64,000 nt of DNA, taken from a virus. Of this stretch, positions 7,635-47,600 are shown in pieces. Where the stretch lies: the UHGV virus genome UHGV-0090440; one strand, written 5' to 3'. Both the position numbers and the translations under genes were made by a program. Position 1 is the stretch's first letter. Each line of letters begins with the position of its first letter. Below the pieces are notes generated by a model that saw only the letters and a list, made by a program, of their open reading frames with translations, had not been told where the DNA came from and did no database searches.

Positions 7635-8027
7635 CTACCAGCGAGACAAACGAACAACATGTTTCACTTTTGCGATCCACTTTCCGCGACAACTATTGAT
7701 TACGGCCTGTGCCAGCTTCAAATTGGCTTCAAAATCAGCCTTACTACCATCAGACTCCACCAGCATTCCGCCATCTATTTCTGGTAAACATAGATAATCC
7801 TGCTCAACCTGCAGCGGCATTGATGGCTCTCTGAATGGCGTTACTTGCTCTGCTTTCCAGCGAAAGCTAACCCTCATCCCCCTGGTGGTCATTACCAGAT
7901 AGCCTGTTATAGTGCTTTTATGGCCCACATCAGTACGCGTGGCATTGCATGACACGATCTTACAGTTAGCGATAGACCACTCCATATTGGTGGCCTGTTG
8001 AGTGCTTAATTTGGTAGTCCCGTACAT
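7635..8027 (-). CDS. hypothetical protein
   Basis: 130-aa ORF translationally coupled to the upstream 191-aa ORF. Confidence 0.5.
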   Translation of the reverse strand: MYGTTKLSTQQATNMEWSIANCKIVSCNATRTDVGHKSTITGYLVMTTRGMRVSFRWKAEQVTPFREPSMPLQVEQDYLCLPEIDGGMLVESDGSKADFEANLKLAQAVINSCRGKWIAKVKHVVRLSRW

Positions 8028-8602
8028 CAGAAAGCCTCCCAGTCAGTCGCGATAATATCCACACCAGTTGCAAACCAGTCTGTCTGCGCCTGTAAATCAC
8101 CATTCATCATTACCAGGCGAGGCATCACCATCACATCGCACCCTTCCACAATATCGAATGCCTCTTCCGGCAAGAATTCGAAGAGCTTTTCTTTGCTGCC
8201 AATGCTGCCACGGAACATCGATATATAGCTCCCTTTAGGCCATGATGTCCGCCGGGCATCAAGCCCTTTCATCATCCAGTAAAAAGCCGAGGAAAAAGGG
8301 ATATTCTTTTTGCCAATGATTACATTATTCGCTTCTGTGTACTTCAGGAACTTAACTAACCTTACCATTGACTCGGATAACGCAACGTATGGCTCATGAT
8401 TGATTGCTGACACGCTTACACCGTGCAATCCAACGCTTACCACTGTCATATCGCCGCTCTGTGCGGTTTCGATATTGACGCCTTTGCGAACTAATGAGGC
8501 GTAAAGTTCCTCTCGCTTTTGGGTCCAGCGTTCCCGCCTCCCTATGAAGTCACTCAAAATGAGATCTTCTTCTGCATATGCGTTATCGTTCGCCGTTAAC
8601 AT
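8027..8602 (-). CDS. hypothetical protein
   Basis: 191-aa ORF with AAAAGGAG RBS. Confidence 0.55.
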   Translation of the reverse strand: MLTANDNAYAEEDLILSDFIGRRERWTQKREELYASLVRKGVNIETAQSGDMTVVSVGLHGVSVSAINHEPYVALSESMVRLVKFLKYTEANNVIIGKKNIPFSSAFYWMMKGLDARRTSWPKGSYISMFRGSIGSKEKLFEFLPEEAFDIVEGCDVMVMPRLVMMNGDLQAQTDWFATGVDIIATDWEAF

Positions 8603-8722
8603 AACGTCTCCTTTTTACACGCGCGACCATCTCTCGGTTAAACCGATAGAGATGTCGAAACTTCGTATTAATTAAGGGTTACAGCCTGAGCGGCTATATG
8701 ATGAATTGAAAGGAGTTGTGGC

Positions 8723-8737
8723 GGTGGTGCCTCCACC
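8723..8737. other. conserved hairpin GGTGG-TGCCT-CCACC
   Basis: One of three hairpins sharing the core GGTGCCTCC with compensatory changes in the outer stem (see 10371 and 12343). Confidence 0.4.
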
Positions 8738-8822
8738 TGCCAGGTTAGCCACTCCTGGCGACGTCACTTATCAGAACGTAGTGAATGAAAATGGCTTCGT
8801 CACGAGCGCATAGCCGCAATTA

Positions 8823-8871
8823 CCACAACGGAAACGGCGCTCGCGTTAATTAAACGCCTTTTCCTGTTGTG
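8823..8871 (-). ncRNA. structured element, family member E1
   Basis: Imperfect long inverted repeat CCACAACGGAAACGG...CCTTTTCCTGTTGTG downstream of tRNA-Ile on the transcribed strand. Confidence 0.3.
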
Positions 8872-9055
8872 CGCCGTACTCTTCCGGCTGTCACACCGAA
8901 TCGCCAGGGTGGTGAGTCCTCGGTCCGACGATATGAACGGGGCTTGCACATTCCGGCTACCTGGTTTGTTGCCTGAGCTAGGGGAAAAGGTAACCCCTTT
9001 AACGTCACCAGACCGCTAACGACGCATGTGCCATACGCCGTGTTACAACCAAATA

Positions 9056-9131
9056 TGGTGGCCCCTACCGGACTTGAACCGGTGACCGTGCGATTATGAG
9101 TCGCCAGCTCTAACCACTGAGCTAAAGGGCC
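9056..9131 (-). tRNA. tRNA-Ile (anticodon CAU, ileX-like)
   Basis: 76-nt cloverleaf by hand folding: acceptor GGCCCTT/AGGGGCC, D-arm GCTCAGTGGTTAGAGC, anticodon loop CTCATAA, T-loop TTCAAGT, encoded CCA. Near-identical to E. coli ileX as recalled; CAT could also read Met. Confidence 0.85.
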
Positions 9132-9285
9132 AGATTACTGTTAATTCCGCTTACGCTTTTTGCCAGGACCGCGTAAGGCTTTTGCTGCTTGCTCGACCCC
9201 ATATACAACCACCAGCAGAAATAAAAATGTCCACCAAGGGTTCTTATCGGCAAACGTCCAAAATTCCATCATGTTCTCTATTTGG

Positions 9286-10113
9286 TTATTTCACCGGAAC
9301 AAACGGAACAGCGGTATTACTGGTCATATACTGCGGTAGCGTTCCGTTCCATTTGTTGATCGCTTCCAACTCCATAACGCCGGGGTTCTGGCGCAGAGCC
9401 TCACCGCGTAAACGAATGGCATCAGCTTCAGCCTGGGCTTTTGTGCGAATGGCATCGGCCTGTCCGGCAGCTTCTGCGCGCAGCATGTTGGCTTCTGCTT
9501 CGCGTTGCTTGACTTCCTGCTCGCGTTGCAGAGTTTTCTGGTTCGCCGTGACTTTGGCATTAATGCTGTCGATAACGGTTGGCGGGTACTCCGGCTTGCC
9601 CACATATGAGAGGCTCATTACCTGAATACCGATGGGCGTCATTTCTTCCTGGATGTCTTTAAGAGCTGCATCCAGTAGTTCAGACTTGCCACCGTCGATA
9701 AATTTGTCGGTGGTCATTTTGCTGGCCAGTCGGTTAAGTGCGTCGGCAATCTTCTGGCGCAGATCGGTGTCGGTAATGTCATCCACGCCTTTGCGGTAGG
9801 TCTGAAATACAGTTGTGACTTTTGCCGGATCAACCTTGTAAGCTACACCAATGTGGTAACCAATTGTTGTCCCGTCGCTCATTTGGAAGCTGAACGGATC
9901 ATCATAGGTCTTCATTTGCTTAAAGGTCGGGAAGATATAAACTTCTGTGTTCCAGCCTGTCCAGTAGCGACCAACGCCAACTACTTCGCCGACACCTTTA
10001 TCATCCCCCAGCTTATTTACTTTGATCCCTACATTGCCTGGTTCTACCCGGTCGCATCCGGTCAGACATAAAGAACCAAAAATAATCGCTGCACTAATCA
10101 ACGTTTTTTTCAT
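9286..10113 (-). CDS. SPFH/band-7 domain lipoprotein
   Basis: 275 aa; signal peptide with lipobox LTGC; SPFH-type core and Ala/Glu-rich coiled-coil tail (EAEANMLRAEAAGQADAIRTKAQAEADAIR). Confidence 0.8.
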   Translation of the reverse strand: MKKTLISAAIIFGSLCLTGCDRVEPGNVGIKVNKLGDDKGVGEVVGVGRYWTGWNTEVYIFPTFKQMKTYDDPFSFQMSDGTTIGYHIGVAYKVDPAKVTTVFQTYRKGVDDITDTDLRQKIADALNRLASKMTTDKFIDGGKSELLDAALKDIQEEMTPIGIQVMSLSYVGKPEYPPTVIDSINAKVTANQKTLQREQEVKQREAEANMLRAEAAGQADAIRTKAQAEADAIRLRGEALRQNPGVMELEAINKWNGTLPQYMTSNTAVPFVPVK

Positions 10114-10330
10114 TAATCAATTTCCTGGTTTTTTCACGAAAAAAGACTACTGCAAAAGCCGGGTAAATGAGCGCGAGAAGGACTCCCAACAATACAAGTA
10201 TTGTGCTGTCAGATGAGATCATATTTGGCAAAAGCCAAACATACAGAACCAGTGACACAATCAAACAGAGGACGGCATAAATATATAGCCGCACCCATAG
10301 CGTTCGACATTTGTTCGGATTGTTCTGCAT
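10094..10330 (-). CDS. small membrane protein
   Basis: 78 aa with two hydrophobic helices; overlaps the start of the SPFH gene (operon partner). Confidence 0.5.
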   Translation of the reverse strand: MQNNPNKCRTLWVRLYIYAVLCLIVSLVLYVWLLPNMISSDSTILVLLGVLLALIYPAFAVVFFREKTRKLINEKNVD

Positions 10331-10370
10331 CCTCTCACTCCATTATTCAACGAATAAAAAAGCTGCGGTG

Positions 10371-10385
10371 CCTGGTGCCTCCAGG
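10371..10385. other. conserved hairpin CCTGG-TGCCT-CCAGG
   Basis: Second copy of the GGTGCCTCC-core hairpin; on the minus strand it is followed after 9 nt by a T6 run and lies about 45 nt upstream of the 78-aa gene start. Confidence 0.4.
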
Positions 10386-10477
10386 TGACGTTAACCAGTT
10401 AACAATTAACGCCGGGATGTTTGATTTAACCACTACGGAGGATTGTTTTAACTGTTCCGCGTGCGCTTAGCCGCATT

Positions 10478-10592
10478 CACCGCAATGGTAAGAGCACTTG
10501 GCTGGCTGGGCGGCGATGACGCCTGTACGCATTTGGTGATCCGGTTCTGCTTCCGGCATTCGCTTAATTAGCCAAATACTCTTAACGTTGCG
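10478..10592 (-). ncRNA. structured element, family member E2
   Basis: Arms CACCGCAATGGTAAGAGCACTTGG / CCAAATACTCTTAACGTTGCG enclosing internal hairpins; begins 2 nt after the 3' end of the Ser-like tRNA candidate. Confidence 0.3.
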
Positions 10593-10593
10593 C

Positions 10594-10680
10594 TGGCGGA
10601 GAGTAATGGAATCGAACCATCATCGCTTGCGCAATGGGACGGTTTTCAAGACCGCTTGAGCACCATGCTCCCTACTCTCC
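10594..10680 (-). tRNA. tRNA-Ser(UGA)-like, atypical; possible pseudogene
   Basis: 87 nt: perfect 7-bp acceptor GGAGAGT/ACTCTCC, T-arm GATGG-TTCGATT-CCATT, anticodon stem-loop GCGGT-CTTGAAA-ACCGT (anticodon TGA), 17-nt variable arm, encoded CCA; but A at position 8 and a short D-loop. Hand-folded only. Confidence 0.4.
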
Positions 10681-10802
10681 AATTGTTGTGGTTACCGGTA
10701 CTGATCTCCGGCTTAGCGACCCCGGCTACTGACTGCATTGCAGTGTGTGAACTCGCCTCGTGTGTCGCTGGGGCATTTCTTTCCGCGCATCAGTCTGCGC
10801 AT

Positions 10803-10882
10803 CAACCACAACGGAAAGAGCATTGGCTAACCAGGCTCGCCGACTCTTCACGATTATCGGCCCAATGCTCTTACCTGTTGTG
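10803..10882 (-). ncRNA. structured element, family member E3
   Basis: Arms CAACCACAACGGAAAGAGCATTGG / CCCAATGCTCTTACCTGTTGTG with a 34-nt insert. Confidence 0.3.
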
Positions 10883-11061
10883 CGCTCCGTTTCGTGGAGC
10901 TAACGGCGGGTGATCGGGCCGCACCAGACTGGACTTATTTCAGCGTTATGCTCATGCCAGAGAATCAAACTGTGATGGTCGGTGCTGAACTCCGACACAG
11001 GGTTGTAGCAAGCCCCGCAAAGCGCGCACTACTGTAGTTGCGGCACATCAGCCTGTGCATT

Positions 11062-11161
11062 CACCACAATGTTGAGAACACTGGTTGTCACGCTGCCTCG
11101 CGACCTTTATTCATAGATTGGGATATGACCCCGTTACGCCAATGTTCTCAACGTTGTAGTG
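11062..11161 (-). ncRNA. structured element, family member E4
   Basis: Arms CACCACAATGTTGAGAACACTGG / CCAATGTTCTCAACGTTGTAGTG; insert contains an AGGCAG-loop hairpin. Confidence 0.3.
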
Positions 11162-11297
11162 CCGGTTACGGTTCCGGCCAGGCTTCTTCCTCAACGGGGT
11201 GTTCTCCATACGGACTACCGTTTATTGGTCGTTCCTGCGGTTTATGTTGTGAAGCCAGATGCTTATCTTCTGGTTGCTTCAAAGAGCTGCACTTCAT

Positions 11298-11384
11298 CAC
11301 AACGGTAAGGGTACTTCGTAGGGATTCGAACCCTCTGCCAAGCTCGGCGATCTCCGACGTCGCAAAATACCCTTACCTGTTGTG
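11298..11384 (-). ncRNA. tRNA-like element E5 (no anticodon arm)
   Basis: 16-bp stem CACAACGGTAAGGGTA/TACCCTTACCTGTTGTG enclosing a D-arm-like hairpin (GCGA-CGTCGGAGA-TCGC) and a T-arm-like hairpin (GAGGG-TTCGAAT-CCCTA); starts 2 nt after the tRNA-Thr 3' end. Confidence 0.35.
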
Positions 11385-11385
11385 T

Positions 11386-11461
11386 TGGTGCCGGTTAACG
11401 GACTCGAACCGCTGACATCCTGCTTACAAGGCAGGCGCTCTACCAACTGAGCTAAACCGGC
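11386..11461 (-). tRNA. tRNA-Thr (anticodon UGU)
   Basis: 76 nt: acceptor GCCGGTT/AACCGGC, D-arm GCTCAGTTGGTAGAGC, anticodon loop CTTGTAA, T-loop TTCGAGT, encoded CCA. Confidence 0.9.
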
Positions 11462-11465
11462 AATT

Positions 11466-11552
11466 TGGTGGGGAGTGATGGAGTCGAACCACCCGAGTCG
11501 CAATGACAGTAGATTTACAGTCTACCCCGCTGCCCCTACGGACTAACTCCCC
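11466..11552 (-). tRNA. tRNA-Tyr (anticodon GUA), type II
   Basis: 87 nt: acceptor GGGGAGT/ACTCCCC, anticodon stem-loop GTAGA-CTGTAAA-TCTAC, long variable arm, T-loop TTCGACT, encoded CCA. Confidence 0.8.
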
Positions 11553-11557
11553 TAAAT

Positions 11558-11632
11558 TGGCGATGGTGGGTGGATTCGAACCACCGACCAGTTGGTTAAC
11601 AGCCAACTGCTCTACCGCTGAGCTACACCATC
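11558..11632 (-). tRNA. tRNA-Asn (anticodon GUU)
   Basis: 75 nt: acceptor GATGGTG/CACCATC, D-arm GCTCAGCGGTAGAGC, anticodon loop CTGTTAA, T-loop TTCGAAT, encoded CCA. Confidence 0.9.
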
Positions 11633-12085
11633 ACTTGCCGGGTACGTCTCCGGCGAGGGCTTCCACCTCCGTATGCTTTTCGGCGCACCGCGCCCTGGCT
11701 GCAATTCGGTAACAGGGGATGCATAACCCTGGCTTCCAGCGTGATTAGCGCCTTCAGCATGACGGGATATACCCGTTGCAAGACATTATCCCAGAAAGCC
11801 ATTAACCAATGGCTGTTACGCGGGAGGGACGTAACAGGTAAGGGCGCTGACCAGAAAGACCTGACCCTTCTCATTCATCTGGTTAATCACACCAGCGCCC
11901 TTGCCTGTTATGCCTCCCCGTTCCCTAATACACAGACGGGGACACTCTGCGGTCGATTTTTTGACGGGGGACGACTCATACCCCGTGGCGTCAGGCTTCT
12001 TAGGCCGCTACCATCATCAGATCATCGTTTGCATTTACTTTAATGGTCGGTTTCTAAACCGCCGCAAAGTCGCTAACCATGACGA

Positions 12086-12116
12086 AAACCCTAAAAAAGC
12101 CCACCCGAAGATGGGC
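12086..12116 (-). terminator. intrinsic terminator (minus strand)
   Basis: Minus strand reads GCCCATC-TTCG-GGTGGGC followed by TTTTTTAGGGTTTTC; upstream of the Asn-Tyr-Thr tRNA cluster. Confidence 0.45.
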
Positions 12117-12140
12117 AAATACGCTACGTATCACACAAGA

Positions 12141-12212
12141 AAGAAGCCGACTGCCTGAACTGGATTCACTTTCAAATGCCCGCTGAAAGGGATCACAAGT
12201 CGGCTTCTTTCT
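12141..12212. repeat. long inverted repeat with nested hairpin
   Basis: Perfect 16-bp arms AAGAAAGAAGCCGACT / AGTCGGCTTCTTTCTT separated by about 40 bp that contain a second hairpin (CTTTCA...TGAAAG). Confidence 0.4.
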
Positions 12213-12342
12213 TGATGCGGCACTCTCTCCGCCCGTCACCGCTCTGTCTCGGTTGTCGCGTTTGCCACGCCAGCCATAACGAGGTTTAAAGTCTTTGCAC
12301 GTTCCCATCACTCGACTGCCGTCTGAGGCTGTTCGTTGCAGC

Positions 12343-12357
12343 GGGGGTGCCTCCCCC
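12343..12357. other. conserved hairpin GGGGG-TGCCT-CCCCC
   Basis: Third copy of the GGTGCCTCC-core hairpin with a different, fully complementary outer stem. Confidence 0.4.
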
Positions 12358-12426
12358 TGGGGATATCCCCGGCCTTACCCCATTCTTTCAAGACACAATG
12401 CAAGGCCACATCCGCATAGGTGCATT

Positions 12427-12488
12427 ACCGCAACATTAAGGAGGCATAGGGCGGTTACCTTTTGCCCTGAGTCTCCTTAATGTTGAAG
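12427..12488 (-). ncRNA. structured element, family member E6
   Basis: Arms ACCGCAACATTAAGGAG / CTCCTTAATGTTGAAG enclosing hairpin AGGGC...GCCCT. Confidence 0.3.
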
Positions 12489-12840
12489 ATGTGCATTGAT
12501 GATTAGATGCAGCATGTACCGTTACTCTCTGCCGGACCATCATCAATGAACACCTTAAAAAGACCTTCCGTGGCTCAACATGGACTGTCGTTTACTCCGC
12601 AAAGTGCTCTCTCTGAAACCACTTTCCGCACTAAACCTGCTGAATTTTGGCCTGCACGGTGCCAAAGCGTGCTCTTGCGTTACCATACTTTTCTAACGCT
12701 TTAATTTGTTAAATGCTGGTGGGCGAACAATAACCAATAAGTGACTATCAAGCCCAGCAAGCGAAACGTGGGTGCCGCCCACCAGCAAGGAAAATTCTAT
12801 GTTAAGTTACCTTCACAATCAATACATTCGAATCGTAATT

Positions 12841-23558: not shown

Positions 23559-24190
23559 ATCACGCTTCAAGTCACGATCCAATCATTACCGACTATATCA
23601 GCCGTCGATAAATCAACTTCCCGGATCTGGAGTCCATCAGTGTGCCTCCGCAATGCTGGGATTGGTAATATTGCGATACCAGGGATTAGTGTTTGGTTGT
23701 GGGGAAGTAGAGAAACGACCAGTAAGAACACCATACTGATCAGGGATCAGAGAACGGGCTTCTTTTTCGGTTGCGGCAATTGCGAAGTGATCGCAGTGTT
23801 TTTGCAGGGAGTGGAAACGCCAGATGAATTCTGGACGTGAGCAAGGATTGGCATTAACCATAGTTACGGCCTCACTAACAGGTTTAACAACCTGCTACCC
23901 GCTGTCAAACAGGTGGCAGGACGTGACAGGGTTGACAGACTGGCGTTAGTGAAACCAGCAGGCCGAAGCCTCCCCATCACGCCCCACCATAATTCGGGCG
24001 TAACGCGATTTACGGACACAAAAATACCGCAATATCGGAAATCTGCGGTTGTCCGCACTAACATTCAGGCTGTCAAACCTGGTCGCAGAATTTGCTACGA
24101 CGGCATTAATATAAGCCTGAAAACATGGAAGATCAACTAAAAATTTCAGCAATGGATGACTTCAGTCGATGATGCAGATCATACATTCCG

Positions 24191-44619: not shown

Positions 44620-47600
44620 TTAATCCTCAAGCAGAGCATCCAGCGACTGGTCATTAATAGTTGTGCTCGCACGTGGTCGCGGCTGCGGCTGCGATGTTTT
44701 GACAACATTATCCGGATCGCCTTTTGTATTGTTCTTGTTCACATTCAGCAGATCGTTCAGGATAGAGCAGATGTTATCCAGCGCCTTCAACATAGCAGGA
44801 TCGTTATTTATAGTGTCAGTAGTTAATGGTTGTCTTATTCCGCTTCGTGCGAGATCGGTTACAGTAGGGAGTTGTGGCGGCATAGCAAGAAAAGGTTCTT
44901 GCACAGCTGAAGCAGAGCCAAATATGGCGTTATTGGCACCAGTTGCTATTCCCCTAATGCTATTAGCGGTTTGTTGAATCCCCCCATTCAGCCAGTCTCC
45001 AACATTTCTTGTTAATGGGCTAATAGCTCGCGCAATCGCACTATTCTGCCCAGTAGACTGCATTACAAGATCGTTCAATATCCCTGTACTATCAATCCCC
45101 CCAACAAGTCGTGAAAGGTTATCGCCAACGGCAGGAATTACTGCGGTTCCTGTCTGTTTAAGCCCTGACACCGTGGAATCAAATAGCGAACCAAAGAAGC
45201 TCTTATCCTCACCTGTAACCACCTTGTAGCCGTTGTCATAAATCTGCACATCACTTGGTGCCGTGATAGTTCGTTTTCCAGAGGTAACTACTGGCGCAGC
45301 TCCCGCCATAGCCTGGTTGATTGCTAGAGCCTGCTCCTGCTGTGGGGTTTTCGGTGCTGGCGCTGCAGATGAAAAGCCCTCCATAGCCTGGCTGATTGCT
45401 AGAGCCTGCTCCTGCTGTGGGGTTTTCGGTGCTGGCGCTGCAGATGAAAAGCCCGCCATAGCCTGGCTGATTGCTAGAGCCTGCTCCTGCTGTGGAGTTT
45501 TCGGAGTAGAAGGGGATACTTGATCTCCCGGAAGTAGATCAATGATTTCTGTATCGTGATTAACAGTGCGTTTTTGTTGTATGGCTGTTGCGATATCAGC
45601 CACTTGAGAAGCTTTTTTAAATCCAAAAGATTTACCGGTTAAGCCGGATATCTTTTCAGTAAGAGCCTGATCCATCCCTTTCGCTTTTTCGGAAAGCGAA
45701 GATATAGAACCAAACGAAGTAGCCAACGCAAAATCCTTTACCAGGTCCAGACTTGTTCCAGCAAGGCTGGTAGCCGCGCCGCCAAATAAATTACTTGCAC
45801 CACTGATTCCGCTTTCATTTATTGTGATTAACCGCTCAAGCAAACTCGATGGAGAGCCGGTATTAACATCAGCGTTCTCTGGATTAATCGGTTGTGGTTG
45901 GTTACCTGTTTTTTGTGGCTTTTTGACTGCCTGGGCATGTTGTGCAACCTCAATTGGCTGTTGTGTTGCTGTCGGAACGGCATTCAAAACTGGTTGAGCT
46001 GGAGATTTTCCATTAGCATATTTTACCTTGCGACCAACACTATATTGCGAATCGCGGGCAATTAGCTGACCACCATTTTCTTTCTGAATTTTATTAATCC
46101 GCGCCAATGTTTCGTCAGAGAATTGTCCCTCCCATCGACCAGTGTTTGTGTTAAATGCTCCAAGTGCGTTCTTAATGAACTCATTATTAACTGCCGGATT
46201 TCCGCCTTCTTTCGTCGCAATTGCACGAACTAATTGCGTCATAACCTCTGGTTTGCTGACATCTATTTTTTCATTAGGCGATACACCAAGATATTTACTG
46301 ACGTTATCAATATATTGGTTAGTATTGTTCTCATTTGGCGGTGCCCATTTTGAAATGATGCTGGATACCGTCTGTAACTTCTGATATCCCGCTGCGGCAC
46401 TGGTGCCGTTGTAATAGCTGGAAACCTGGTTTGCCAGTGCCCTGATCCCTTCTTCAGGTGTGTTAAATCGCGCAAAACGTTGTTCACCTTTTGCATTTGG
46501 CGATTCCAGCGTCGCCCCTTCCTGGTTGGCAAAAACAAGATTGCCGAGATTATTATTTCGGTAATTGCGGTTTTTAGAGTTGCTGCCGCCAATATTCAGA
46601 TCCGCTGCAATGGTGTTGTTGGCAGGTGAACTAAATTCAGTTGGAGAAGTATACCCGTGCTCACCAACTCCATCCTCGCCATTACGCCCACCTTGTAATT
46701 GTTCACCTAGAGAATGAATCGCATCGACAGTTTTTTTGGTGCCGTCTTCAACAGCTTTTTTTACTTGTTTCGTGTTTTCGTCAGTGGATAAAAATGTATC
46801 CTTAAGGCTACCAAAAACAGATTTGGTGATATCTACCGCGCCGTTAACACCACGAGCAATATCTCCGGTATCAAAATTCTGAAGTTTTTCACCTGCTCTT
46901 TCAAATCCTAGCGCAGAAATTCCTTTCCCTATCAAGTTCGTTGCGCCCGACACCAAGCCCCCCATATCGAGCACATTAGCTGTTGCGTAAGCCGTTTTTT
47001 GCTGTTCGGCTACAGCATCATCGTCACTTAATCCAAAGGCTGCCTTTTGCGCATCTGTATCAGTGTAACCATCTATAGCGTCATATCCCGCCATAGCCAG
47101 CGAACCGATGATAGGGATAGCTCTTGCAGCTGTAGAAGCAGCTGATTTAACACCTATTTTTGCAGCACTTTTGAGGGCTACGGATTCGGTTTTTTTCTTT
47201 GCAACAGTTTCACCTGTTTTAACTGTGGCCTCTTCGGCAACAACACCTGCTGGCTTAACTGCCTTTGCTGTGTTTTTTGTTTCTTTAGCAATACCCTTAG
47301 ATGCGTCGCTTGTGGTGCTGATGTCTTTGGCTTTACTAACCTTTGTTTTAACAGTCTTTGCAGCTCCGGCACCAGCTCCAGCAGCAGCGGTTCCGGCAGC
47401 GGCTTTTTCACCAACAGAAAGGGCTTTTTTCCCCAGATTGCGACCTTTCCTTTTCGGTTTGTTCCGTTTATTTTTACCAGCCTGATCGCCAATATTGATT
47501 TTATTTCTTCTGCTTGCTCGATTTCTCCAGAGATCACTTAAGCCGAACTTATTCCCAGAAGATACTGATTTGCGTAGCTTAACTACTTCGTCGGAGACAT

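Follow-up and report, generated by a model that had tools for sequence, protein, structure and literature searches.

Introduction

Phage T4 carries two stable hairpin RNAs of unknown function, species 1 and 2 (rnaC and rnaD), within its tRNA cluster; RNase III cleavage of species 1 is a classical example. Bacterial Y RNAs (YrlA) combine a long terminal stem with a tRNA-like module. In rRNA operons, flanking sequences pair into long stems around the structured 16S and 23S RNAs, and these stems are cut by RNase III. In the early RNase III sites of T7, with R1.1 as the archetype, the lower and upper stems are separated by an interruption where the enzyme cuts. RNase III processing in lambda was reportedly the subject, by its title, of a study by Daniels, Subbarao, Blattner, and Lozeron (Virology 167:568, 1988).

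The rules for recognition by E. coli RNase III are defined by base pair position (PMC1540722). The proximal box consists of G-C at position 1 (pb1), A-U or U-A at pb2, A-U at pb3, and A-U or U-A at pb4, with G-C or C-G at pb2 acting as an antideterminant. The distal box is U-A over U.G, both boxes fall within an 11-bp helix, and full contacts need a long duplex (PMC1540722). A processing signal of this type is expected to be a stem of about two turns, roughly 20 to 22 bp. Here, we describe hairpins in a tRNA-containing region of the window, by which we mean the whole 64-kb stretch of viral DNA that was analyzed. The region is the tRNA-bearing part of the ban operon in a D6/P1-like phage-plasmid. 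Its hairpins belong to a widespread phage RNA family and are most likely a signal of a known kind rather than a novel type of tRNA-like RNA.

Results

The region contains the following features, listed by position:

8824-8871 (-): E1, a short member of 48 nt with the foot CACAAC/GUUGUG, a bulged A, and a loop of 9 nt; it lies downstream from tRNA-Met/Ile2(CAU)
9056-9131 (-): tRNA with a CAU anticodon, annotated as tRNA-Ile2 in P1
9141-10330 (-): three ORFs, encoding a 43-amino-acid product, an SPFH/Band 7 lipoprotein, and a 78-amino-acid membrane protein
10481-10592 (-): E2, a 112-nt hairpin beginning 1 nt past the CCA of tRNA-Ser
10594-10680 (-): tRNA-Ser(UGA), type II, tRNA-Sec-like in Rfam and below threshold
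10807-10882 (-): E3, a 76-nt hairpin, homologue of lambda 44786-44862 (96% identity)
11062-11161 (-): E4, 100 nt (core 11065-11158), with two internal hairpins
11298-11384 (-): E5, an 87-nt hairpin beginning 1 nt past the CCA of tRNA-Thr and enclosing a small hairpin and a T-arm-like hairpin, AGGGUUCGAAUCCCU
11386-11461 (-): tRNA-Thr (ARAGORN, Rfam)
11466-11552 (-): tRNA-Tyr (ARAGORN, Rfam)
11558-11632 (-): tRNA-Asn (ARAGORN, Rfam)
11830-11912 (-): E6, with an extra base on both arms and thus no bulge; outer pairing reaches 11823-11919
12099-12116 (-): terminator-like hairpin with a U-run, upstream of E6 within the leader of the operon, corresponding to part of the region annotated in P1 as dicF-like
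12431-12485 (-): E7, a diverged possible member, CAACAUUAAGGAG.../...CUCCUUAAUGUUG, followed by a GGUAAUGC tail
12794-12822 (-): sigma-70-like promoter match, the only one in the region, upstream of all minus-strand features

The original prediction described four canonical tRNAs and an atypical Ser-like candidate in 3.7 kb of noncoding DNA. ARAGORN identified five tRNAs, each encoded by the minus strand (Met/Ile2-CAU, Ser-UGA, Thr, Tyr, and Asn). Four of the five passed the Rfam tRNA threshold, while the Ser gene matched best as tRNA-Sec and stayed below threshold, as its description as atypical would lead one to expect. The supposed noncoding character did not hold, since about 1.2 kb is coding; the SPFH/Band 7 lipoprotein gene alone (9286-10113, minus strand) encodes 275 amino acids with a Pfam E value of 8e-31. 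The first gene downstream of the tRNA island encodes a Tad2-like anti-defense domain.

The six related long hairpins that had been predicted were recovered at all six loci (E1 to E6), with arms close to CACAACGGTAAGAGCA / TGCTCTTACCTGTTGTG, and E7 was added as a diverged seventh. The arm motif has nine matches in the 64-kb window, compared with 1.95 expected, and seven of these nine fall within this region. The elements share a plan in which a 6-bp foot (CACAAC/GUUGUG), often with a bulged A, leads into an upper stem of at least 13 bp capped by a variable branched insert; the stem duplex reaches 19 to 21 bp or more and is shorter in E1 and E7. One or two internal hairpins had been proposed for each element; folding confirmed them inside E2 to E6, and the first of those in E4 contains the T-loop-like GGGGUCAUAUCCC. 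As noted previously, two of the hairpins directly follow tRNAs: a single spacer base separates E5 and E2 from the encoded CCA of tRNA-Thr (11386) and of the Ser-like tRNA (10594), respectively. Minus-strand folding energies for E1 to E6 ranged from -24 to -53 kcal/mol, with z-scores from -3.2 to -6.6. E6 was the sole copy with greater stability on the plus strand, a point that counts against a signal acting in the minus-strand transcript. On an arm-only covariance model, E1 scored 25.7 bits on the minus strand (E = 3.6e-4) versus 20.9 bits on the plus strand, and E7 was weak, at 8 to 11 bits.

The GGUAAUGC tail that follows E7 is the same as the tail following E1 and E2. Units of about 110 nt flanking these three elements on the downstream side are paralogous and align with one another. 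They partially match STnc100 (RF02076), at 37.1 bits against a gathering threshold of 47 and over model positions 31 to 147 of 206. In lambdoid prophages, the small RNAs STnc100 and PasD lie in the vicinity of Q, tRNAs, and TerB (bioRxiv 10.64898/2026.05.13.724894); the likeness concerns the flanking units and not the hairpins themselves.

Comparison with relatives, which the original prediction had proposed, revealed that the arms are conserved as pairs. In a set of 62 distinct arm pairs, which are related by descent so that the counts are not independent events, 92.7% of arm cells were paired, compared with 79.5% in shuffles and 33 to 54% in slid controls. Changes on both sides were seen at 15 of the 21 pairs, in 173 cells, and none of 500 shuffles reached these values. 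Of 385 element places from 137 sources, 341 were informative, and in 325 of these the greater stability lay on the strand that encodes the nearest tRNA. Counting only unique tRNA-oriented elements, the tRNA strand was favored by 73 to 8, with a mean ddG of -5.0 kcal/mol. In addition, the outer stem contained 122 G.U or U.G pairs versus 25 A.C or C.A mismatches. This roughly 5:1 preference on the transcribed strand, together with the strand bias in energy, indicates selection on RNA. These results demonstrate that the hairpins are RNA structures selected on the transcribed (minus) strand.

The paired arms carry RNase III determinants in a unique register. When 24 registers and orientations were scanned, the best scored 0.79 and the next 0.49. 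In the best register, pb1 (column 12) is G-C in 55 of the 62 sequences, and pb2 (column 11) is A-U in all 62, with no G-C or C-G antideterminant. The rule for pb3 (column 10) fits only half, with A-U in 32 of 62 and G-C in 29, and pb4 (column 9) is U-A in 50 and either U-A or A-U in 52. The distal box follows at the correct spacing in the upper stem, with U.G at column 17 in 34 (55%) and U-A at column 18 in 60. At least four of the six rules hold in 60 of the 62 sequences, and the arms of 19 to 21 bp are long enough for full contacts. In the window, E1 and E7 have upper stems too short or too diverged for a distal box. Columns 15 to 18, CAUU/AGUG with its wobble included, are identical to the upper stem of T7 R1.1. 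The near-invariant foot CACAAC/GUUGUG and its bulged A lie outside the published RNase III rules.

The lambda homologue of E3 sits in the Q-dependent late leader, 7 nt past tR', and has the same arms, bulged A, and insert as E3. It and tR' are the only long inverted repeats in that leader. By its position and the title of the 1988 paper, this hairpin is presumably the RNase III site of Daniels et al. The insert of E2 (10505-10569) corresponds to sequence just downstream of the hairpin in lambda and is 98 to 100% identical to the lambda-type leaders L012 and L014. Family members occur in 78 P1/D6-like and 13 SSU5-like contexts, in lambdoid phages, and, in other prophages, just past the gene for the CI repressor. 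A feature special to phage-plasmid tRNA islands was thus rejected, as the family is common to lambdoid and SSU5-like phages, and its presence in unrelated phage types implies a host factor.

Several homology breakpoints fall inside the arms. Similarity between the window and P1 ends at 10496, in the left arm of E2, and restarts at 10864, in the right arm of E3. A block shared with the SSU5-like phage-plasmid L011 begins at 10571, in the right arm of E2, and ends at 10825, in the left arm of E3; similarity picks up again at 11366, in the right arm of E5. Homology to lambda in a prophage whose Q module is different begins exactly at the hairpin, and hybrid hairpins with arms from different paralogues were also seen. 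Breakpoints of this kind explain the combination of conserved arms and swapped inserts.

E5 had been proposed to fold as an acceptor-like stem with D-like and T-like arms. The T-like arm stood: AGGGUUCGAAUCCCU is a strict T-loop motif, and the T-arm with its UUCRANY loop directly adjoins the 3' arm, as stacking on the terminal stem requires. The D-like arm proved to be merely a small hairpin, and neither ARAGORN nor the Rfam tRNA model called E5 as a tRNA, even at E ≤ 10. The best local alignment of the E5 insert to 71 coresident phage tRNAs scored 23; shuffled queries averaged 17.4 and peaked at 23. The T-loop hairpin is therefore the only solid part of the tRNA likeness of E5, and a tRNA with a cloverleaf was rejected for want of a tRNA-model match. 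Of 110 unique elements, 12 contain a strict T-loop hairpin in the sense orientation and none in antisense, where shuffles predict 0.14; these hairpins come from two unrelated insert lineages. The E5 insert is nearly invariant across at least 80 copies. An intact tRNA was not found inside any element.

Discussion

We consider it probable that the hairpins are host RNase III processing signals in a long minus-strand polycistronic transcript. Of the roles suggested in the original prediction, a processing signal is the best supported, given RNA-level selection on the transcribed strand and the RNase III determinants in a single register. The transcript, which would carry both tRNAs and accessory genes, would be the equivalent of the P1 ban operon. 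Cuts are predicted at ...CACAAC(A)GG|UAAG... on the 5' arm and at ...CUUACC|GUUGUG on the 3' arm, opposite the bulged A; in E5, these would fall at 11376/11375 and 11304/11303, respectively. Cleavage might detach a tRNA located 1 nt upstream from the RNA that follows it, so that a trailer some 10 nt long would be left to be trimmed by exonucleases. Against this reading, 3' maturation of E. coli tRNAs does not ordinarily depend on RNase III. Cleavage could also uncouple adjacent cassettes and release the capped upper hairpin. The arms may double as crossover points between phages, because arms of about 20 nt are common to many temperate phages.

The breakpoints inside the arms, the start of homology at the lambda hairpin, and the hybrid hairpins could instead suggest that the arms are DNA-level recombination joints, or linkers, for swapping cassettes of tRNAs, SPFH/Tci genes, and small RNAs, with the RNA hairpin incidental. 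We find this unlikely, in that a DNA joint requires neither pairing between arms nor positions tolerant of G.U, and both the G.U excess and the strand bias favor selection on RNA; the breakpoints may be a consequence and not the function, because any conserved functional site turns into a crossover point. The inverted termini around variable interiors and the many copies across phage genomes also recall selfish palindromic repeats of the MITE/REP type that spread by transposition. Such a mobile palindrome was rejected and is highly unlikely, as the copies are confined to one 3.7-kb stretch of the window, show no evident target-site duplications in their flanks, are oriented with transcription, and occupy fixed functional positions after tR', tRNA CCA ends, and CI genes.

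The elements seem quite unlikely to encode stable, structured small RNAs whose excised capped hairpins act themselves. T-loop carriers might mimic tRNAs or act as decoys for tRNA-binding enzymes or tRNA-targeting defense nucleases, a role with which the sense-only strict T-loops, the near invariance of the E5 insert, the Tad2-like domain next to the island, and the precedent of the T4 hairpin RNAs would agree. Nevertheless, inserts are otherwise highly variable and are exchanged freely between orthologous positions, they match neither tRNA nor Y RNA models, their similarity to tRNAs stops at the T-arm, and E5 varies too little for covariation of its internal hairpins. For the same lack of tRNA similarity beyond the T-arm, we find no support for the suggestion that the family arose as tRNA-derived pseudo-elements, and the lambda late-leader homologue has no tRNA nearby. 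Several copies sit in operon leaders just past promoter-proximal terminators, as might sites for another factor (in antitermination, or an RNA-stability protein) or terminators. Termination, also suggested in the original prediction, finds no support in the stems, which are followed by GUGAAUGC-type tails and not by U-runs; in an intrinsic terminator scan, none of E1 to E7 was a minus-strand terminator-like site, and the sole overlap (8843-8857) was a small stem on the plus strand, within the loop of E1. Lambda, P1, and SSU5-like phages are not known to share any phage-encoded protein, and the conserved pairs fit the RNase III rules and no other motif known to us, which makes another factor or a terminator very improbable.

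As putative RNase III sites, the hairpins resemble the T7 early sites in their layout, in which lower and upper stems are interrupted at the point of cleavage and the upper stem contains both boxes, and in the 4-bp CAUU/AGUG with its U.G wobble; both are repeated along one polycistronic transcript. There is no overall sequence homology between them, a small loop closes the upper stem in T7 where this family has branched inserts of 30 to 80 nt, and T7 sites part mRNAs, not tRNAs. The family may also be likened to the stems of rRNA operons, although the RNA that it encloses is short and variable and never an intact tRNA. E5 and L014-type elements share with YrlA an end-to-end long stem around T-loop hairpins. 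However, the stem does not resemble the Ro-binding helix in sequence, a tRNA-like module is absent from most of the family, and no Y RNA family was among the Rfam matches in the region at E ≤ 10; identity with a bacterial Y RNA was rejected on the lack of a covariance-model match. T4 species 1 and 2 are likewise long-hairpin, non-tRNA RNAs among phage tRNA genes, but they are discrete stable species, while the elements described here are known from their sequence. Lambda has just one copy, in its late leader and away from any tRNA, whereas in the window seven copies are interspersed among tRNAs and accessory genes.

A hairpin family among the tRNA genes

The window is a D6/P1-like phage-plasmid. 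Its 3.7-kb tRNA region is similar to phages D6, P1, P7, and RCS47 and to approximately 1,100 enterobacterial plasmids, most of them non-mobilizable. ARAGORN found five tRNAs here, four of them above the Rfam tRNA threshold, in line with the original prediction of four canonical tRNAs and an atypical Ser-like one. The best Rfam match of tRNA-Ser(UGA) was tRNA-Sec, whose score of 44.6 bits fell short of the 47-bit cut-off; in the ARAGORN drawing, the tRNA is a normal Ser cloverleaf of type II. This tRNA accompanies the hairpins described below in P1-like and SSU5-like phage-plasmids alike. The region had also been called noncoding, which is only partly correct: three minus-strand open reading frames (ORFs), one with an SPFH/Band 7 domain, occupy 9141-10330.

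A repeat finder and a fuzzy arm search recovered all six of the related long hairpins first noticed in this region (E1 to E6), plus a diverged seventh (E7). The family has conserved arms around variable inserts.

Features of the tRNA region (tRNAs as called by ARAGORN)
8824-8871, minus strand, hairpin E1
9056-9131, minus strand, tRNA with CAU anticodon
10481-10592, minus strand, hairpin E2
10594-10680, minus strand, tRNA-Ser-UGA
10807-10882, minus strand, hairpin E3
11062-11161, minus strand, hairpin E4
11298-11384, minus strand, hairpin E5
11386-11461, minus strand, tRNA-Thr
11466-11552, minus strand, tRNA-Tyr
11558-11632, minus strand, tRNA-Asn
11830-11912, minus strand, hairpin E6
12431-12485, minus strand, diverged seventh hairpin E7

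The arm motif has nine matches in the window, versus 1.95 expected, and seven of the nine lie within this region. Minus-strand folding energies range from -24 to -53 kcal/mol (z-scores, -3.2 to -6.6), and every hairpin except E6 is more stable on this strand than on the plus strand. E5 and E2 do start next to a tRNA 3' end, one base after the CCA of tRNA-Thr and of tRNA-Ser, respectively. The hairpins are thus real and exceed chance expectation. No Rfam family covers them at the gathering threshold or at an E value of ≤10; the matches obtained were the tRNAs, C4/c4-a1b1 elsewhere in the window, a subthreshold STnc100, and chance miRNA-type matches.

Several other features were seen around the hairpins. 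Three paralogous units of ~110 nt (8715-8822, 10364-10484, and 12335-12430, minus strand) follow E1, E2, and E7, respectively, and share conserved ends, GUUGCGGUGAAUGC... and ...CAGGUGGAGGCACCACCGC.GCAAC. The unit next to E2 matches STnc100 at 37.1 bits, below the threshold of 47; STnc100, like PasD, is a small RNA of prophages that binds Hfq (bioRxiv 10.64898/2026.05.13.724894). The homologous stretch of P1 is the C1-controlled ban operon, consisting of promoter P1ban, a "dicF-like" leader, tRNA-Asn, tRNA-Thr, tciABC, tRNA-Ile, and ban. Despite that label, the Rfam DicF model has no match in the operon leader of the window. The minus strand of this leader contains a promoter-like site (12794-12822), a strong terminator-like hairpin bearing a U-run (12116 to 12099), and, at 12136-12214, a perfect hairpin whose arms are 17 bp long. 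Downstream of the island, the first ORF (191 amino acids, 8027-8602, minus strand) encodes a Tad2-like (Thoeris anti-defence 2-like) domain (PF11195; E = 1e-9), and the island may therefore be part of an early counter-defence operon. Elsewhere, Rfam places the known C4 antisense RNA and its a1/b1 targets, of the P1/P7-type immI region, at 23909-24114 (minus strand).

The same hairpins occur in lambda and other temperate phages

P1 (AF234172) carries E3-, E4-, E5-, and E6-type copies. SSU5/pHCM2-like phage-plasmids, with examples from Shigella, Klebsiella, and E. coli, have three or four such hairpins each, together with the tRNA set of the window (Ser-UGA, Thr, Tyr, and Asn). A search of E. 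coli genomes revealed 96% identity between E3 and a 77-nt element of lambda prophages. In lambda itself this homolog lies at 44786-44862, 7 nt past the U-run of tR', so that it is the first RNA made after Q-modified polymerase passes the 6S RNA terminator. Another prophage, whose Q/PR'/tR' module differs, is homologous to lambda from exactly the hairpin start onward, and a further lambda-type leader has two hairpins ~350 nt apart.

The exact arm pattern was present in at least 120 viral contigs of IMG/VR; among the matches listed, marker proteins identified 78 as P1/D6-like and 13 as SSU5-like. In the unclassified contigs examined, the hairpins lie immediately 3' of a CI-type (HTH plus Peptidase_S24) repressor gene and on its strand (L020, 6592-6757; L028, 5996-6161; also L024, L030, L136, and L013). 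In two contigs of this kind, the 5' end of tRNA-Arg(UCU) lies directly against a hairpin. One RNA hairpin family is thus common to lambda, P1/D6-like, SSU5-like, and other enterobacterial temperate phages, always at the borders of accessory cassettes.

The hairpins are RNA structures on the transcribed strand

The two strands were compared at 385 element places; of 341 informative cases, 325 were more stable on the strand that carries the nearest tRNA. Unique tRNA-oriented elements favored the tRNA strand by 73 to 8 (mean difference, 5 kcal/mol), and their outer stems contained 122 G.U/U.G pairs versus 25 A.C/C.A mismatches. Elements were detected with a Python arm search and RNAfold instead of a covariance model; an arms-only model detected only the short E1, because the long inserts exceed the model window.

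In 41 elements, the 5' arm has an A bulged after base six. With this bulge taken out, 62 distinct arm pairs gave a gap-free alignment. The 21-pair helix was 92.7% paired, compared with 79.5% in shuffles and 33 to 54% in slid controls, and both sides had changed at 15 pairs (173 cells). None of 500 shuffles matched any measure of pairing or covariation. Because the arm pairs share descent, none of these counts represents independent events; even so, the strength of the signal, together with the slid controls, makes a chance origin unlikely. The family is therefore an RNA structure formed on the transcribed strand.

The conserved helix resembles an RNase III site

The minimal E. coli RNase III site is an 11-bp helix whose 4-bp proximal box reads, from the scissile bond, pb4 A-U/U-A, pb3 A-U, pb2 A-U/U-A, and pb1 G-C, with G-C at pb2 strongly inhibitory; the distal box is U.G and then U-A (Pertzev and Nicholson, PMC1540722). 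A position-specific in vivo scoring matrix has also been published (PMC6212723); we scored the hairpins by the qualitative rules of PMC1540722. The register was rebuilt from the numbering in that paper (pb2 = 9:30; middle box = 12:27 and 13:26; 28-nt product), was checked on the natural T7 R1.1 sequence, AAGGUCAUUC-GCAA-GAGUGGCCUUUAU, and sets the distal box at base pairs 9 and 10.

RNase III determinants in the aligned arm helix (62 distinct arm pairs)
Column 9, pb4: U-A in 50
Column 10, pb3: A-U in 32, G-C in 29
Column 11, pb2: A-U in 62
Column 12, pb1: G-C in 55
Column 17, distal box: U.G in 34
Column 18, distal box: U-A in 60

Among 24 registers and orientations, the predicted one scored 0.79 and the runner-up 0.49; 60 of the 62 sequences agreed with at least four of the six rules. 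Columns 15 to 18 (CAUU/AGUG) are identical in T7 R1.1. The determinant match predicts exact scissile bonds: the 5' arm would be cut at CACAAC(A)GG|UAAG and the 3' arm at CUUACC|GUUGUG, opposite the bulged A, an arrangement reminiscent of T7 cleavage sites, where the helix is interrupted. For E5 the predicted bonds are 11376/11375 on the 5' arm and 11304/11303 on the 3' arm, and for the lambda hairpin they would lie near 44794/44795 and 44856/44857. For the lambda late-leader RNase III site, our literature search found only a citation of a 1988 lambda paper (Daniels et al., PMID 2849240), and we infer that the RNase III sites of that paper belong to the late-leader hairpin.

Judged from these sequence features, the best explanation is that the hairpins are a family of RNase III-type processing stems, homologous to the lambda late-leader hairpin. 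A signal of this kind is already known; the members are new, and no new class of RNA is involved. The RNase III rules do not account for the bulged A or for the foot, CACAAC/GUUGUG, which hardly varies; pb3 (about half), the short E1, the diverged E7, and the plus-strand fold of E6 fit poorly.

The reading of E5 as a tRNA-like structure without an anticodon arm held in part. E5 encloses a small hairpin and a strict T-loop hairpin, AGGGUUCGAAUCCCU, the latter stacked on the long stem, but neither ARAGORN nor Rfam calls it a tRNA. In a second, unrelated insert lineage, from lambdoid prophages, GUAGAGUUCGACUCUCUAC adjoins the 5' arm. Of 110 unique elements, 12 have a strict T-loop motif on the sense strand and 0 have one on the antisense strand (shuffles, 0.14); most family members have no such module, and the inner helices of E5 vary too little for covariation testing. 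No element encloses a called tRNA, and a tRNA-derived origin of the inserts found no support, as similarity to co-resident tRNAs beyond the T-arm did not exceed that of shuffled controls. RNase III might excise the capped upper hairpins as stable RNAs of ~60 to 75 nt, the T-loop-bearing ones (E5 and the lambdoid type of L014) acting as tRNA mimics, a minority reading that we regard as improbable. Such RNAs might, for instance, titrate enzymes that bind tRNAs or act as decoys for defence nucleases that target tRNAs, and they might act jointly with the phage tRNAs and the neighboring Tad2-like gene. Processing by RNase III offers a concrete, testable mechanism in place of the puzzling tRNA-like description.

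Readings of the hairpins as Y RNA/YrlA, as MITE/REP elements, and as terminators were each rejected. No Y RNA family was among the Rfam matches up to an E value of 10; the copies keep to a single region of the window, follow the direction of transcription, and lack duplicated flanks; and the stems have no U-run after them. The foot resembles the RYYYAAC/GTTRRRY cores of integron attC sites without fitting them, and there is no integrase nearby.

Annotated ORFs overlie the hairpins

GenBank annotates this family as protein-coding ORFs. In P1 (AF234172, 3660-4229), upl and plp lie over hairpins but are annotated on the other strand from the tRNAs, with plp also overlapping tRNA-Thr; their homologue in the window (11038-11415, plus strand) has no Pfam match. 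ORFs of the upl/plp type are probably not genes. In lambda (J02459), within 44621-44946 (822-1147 of our extract), orf-64 overlaps 6S RNA, tR', and the hairpin start. Given these annotations and the lack of an Rfam family, recognizing the hairpins would correct such entries and be useful for annotation.

Homology breakpoints fall within the arms

Homology between phages breaks within the arms. Similarity between the window and P1 ends at 10496, in the left arm of E2, and resumes at 10864, in the right arm of E3; the tRNA-Ser segment thus lies between two half-hairpins that correspond to one single hairpin in P1. An SSU5-like plasmid shares a block from 10571 (right arm of E2) to 10825 (left arm of E3), and similarity resumes at 11366 (right arm of E5). 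The shared 20-nt arms thus serve as crossover points and give rise to chimeric hairpins, which explains why conserved arms carry variable inserts. We take this role to follow from the conservation of a functional RNA site, although it could be a selected property in itself. On the RNase III reading, the hairpins punctuate the tRNA/accessory operon while doubling as mosaic joints, marking both the probable cut points of phage polycistronic RNAs and the exchange points of tRNA and moron cassettes.

The insert of E2 is the sequence that normally follows the lambda hairpin. In the lambda leader, the hairpin and tR' are the sole long inverted repeats. The 3' arm of the lambda hairpin can pair instead with CAGCACAAC, 67 nt downstream, and the segment enclosed by this alternative pairing is the one found as the insert of E2 in the window.
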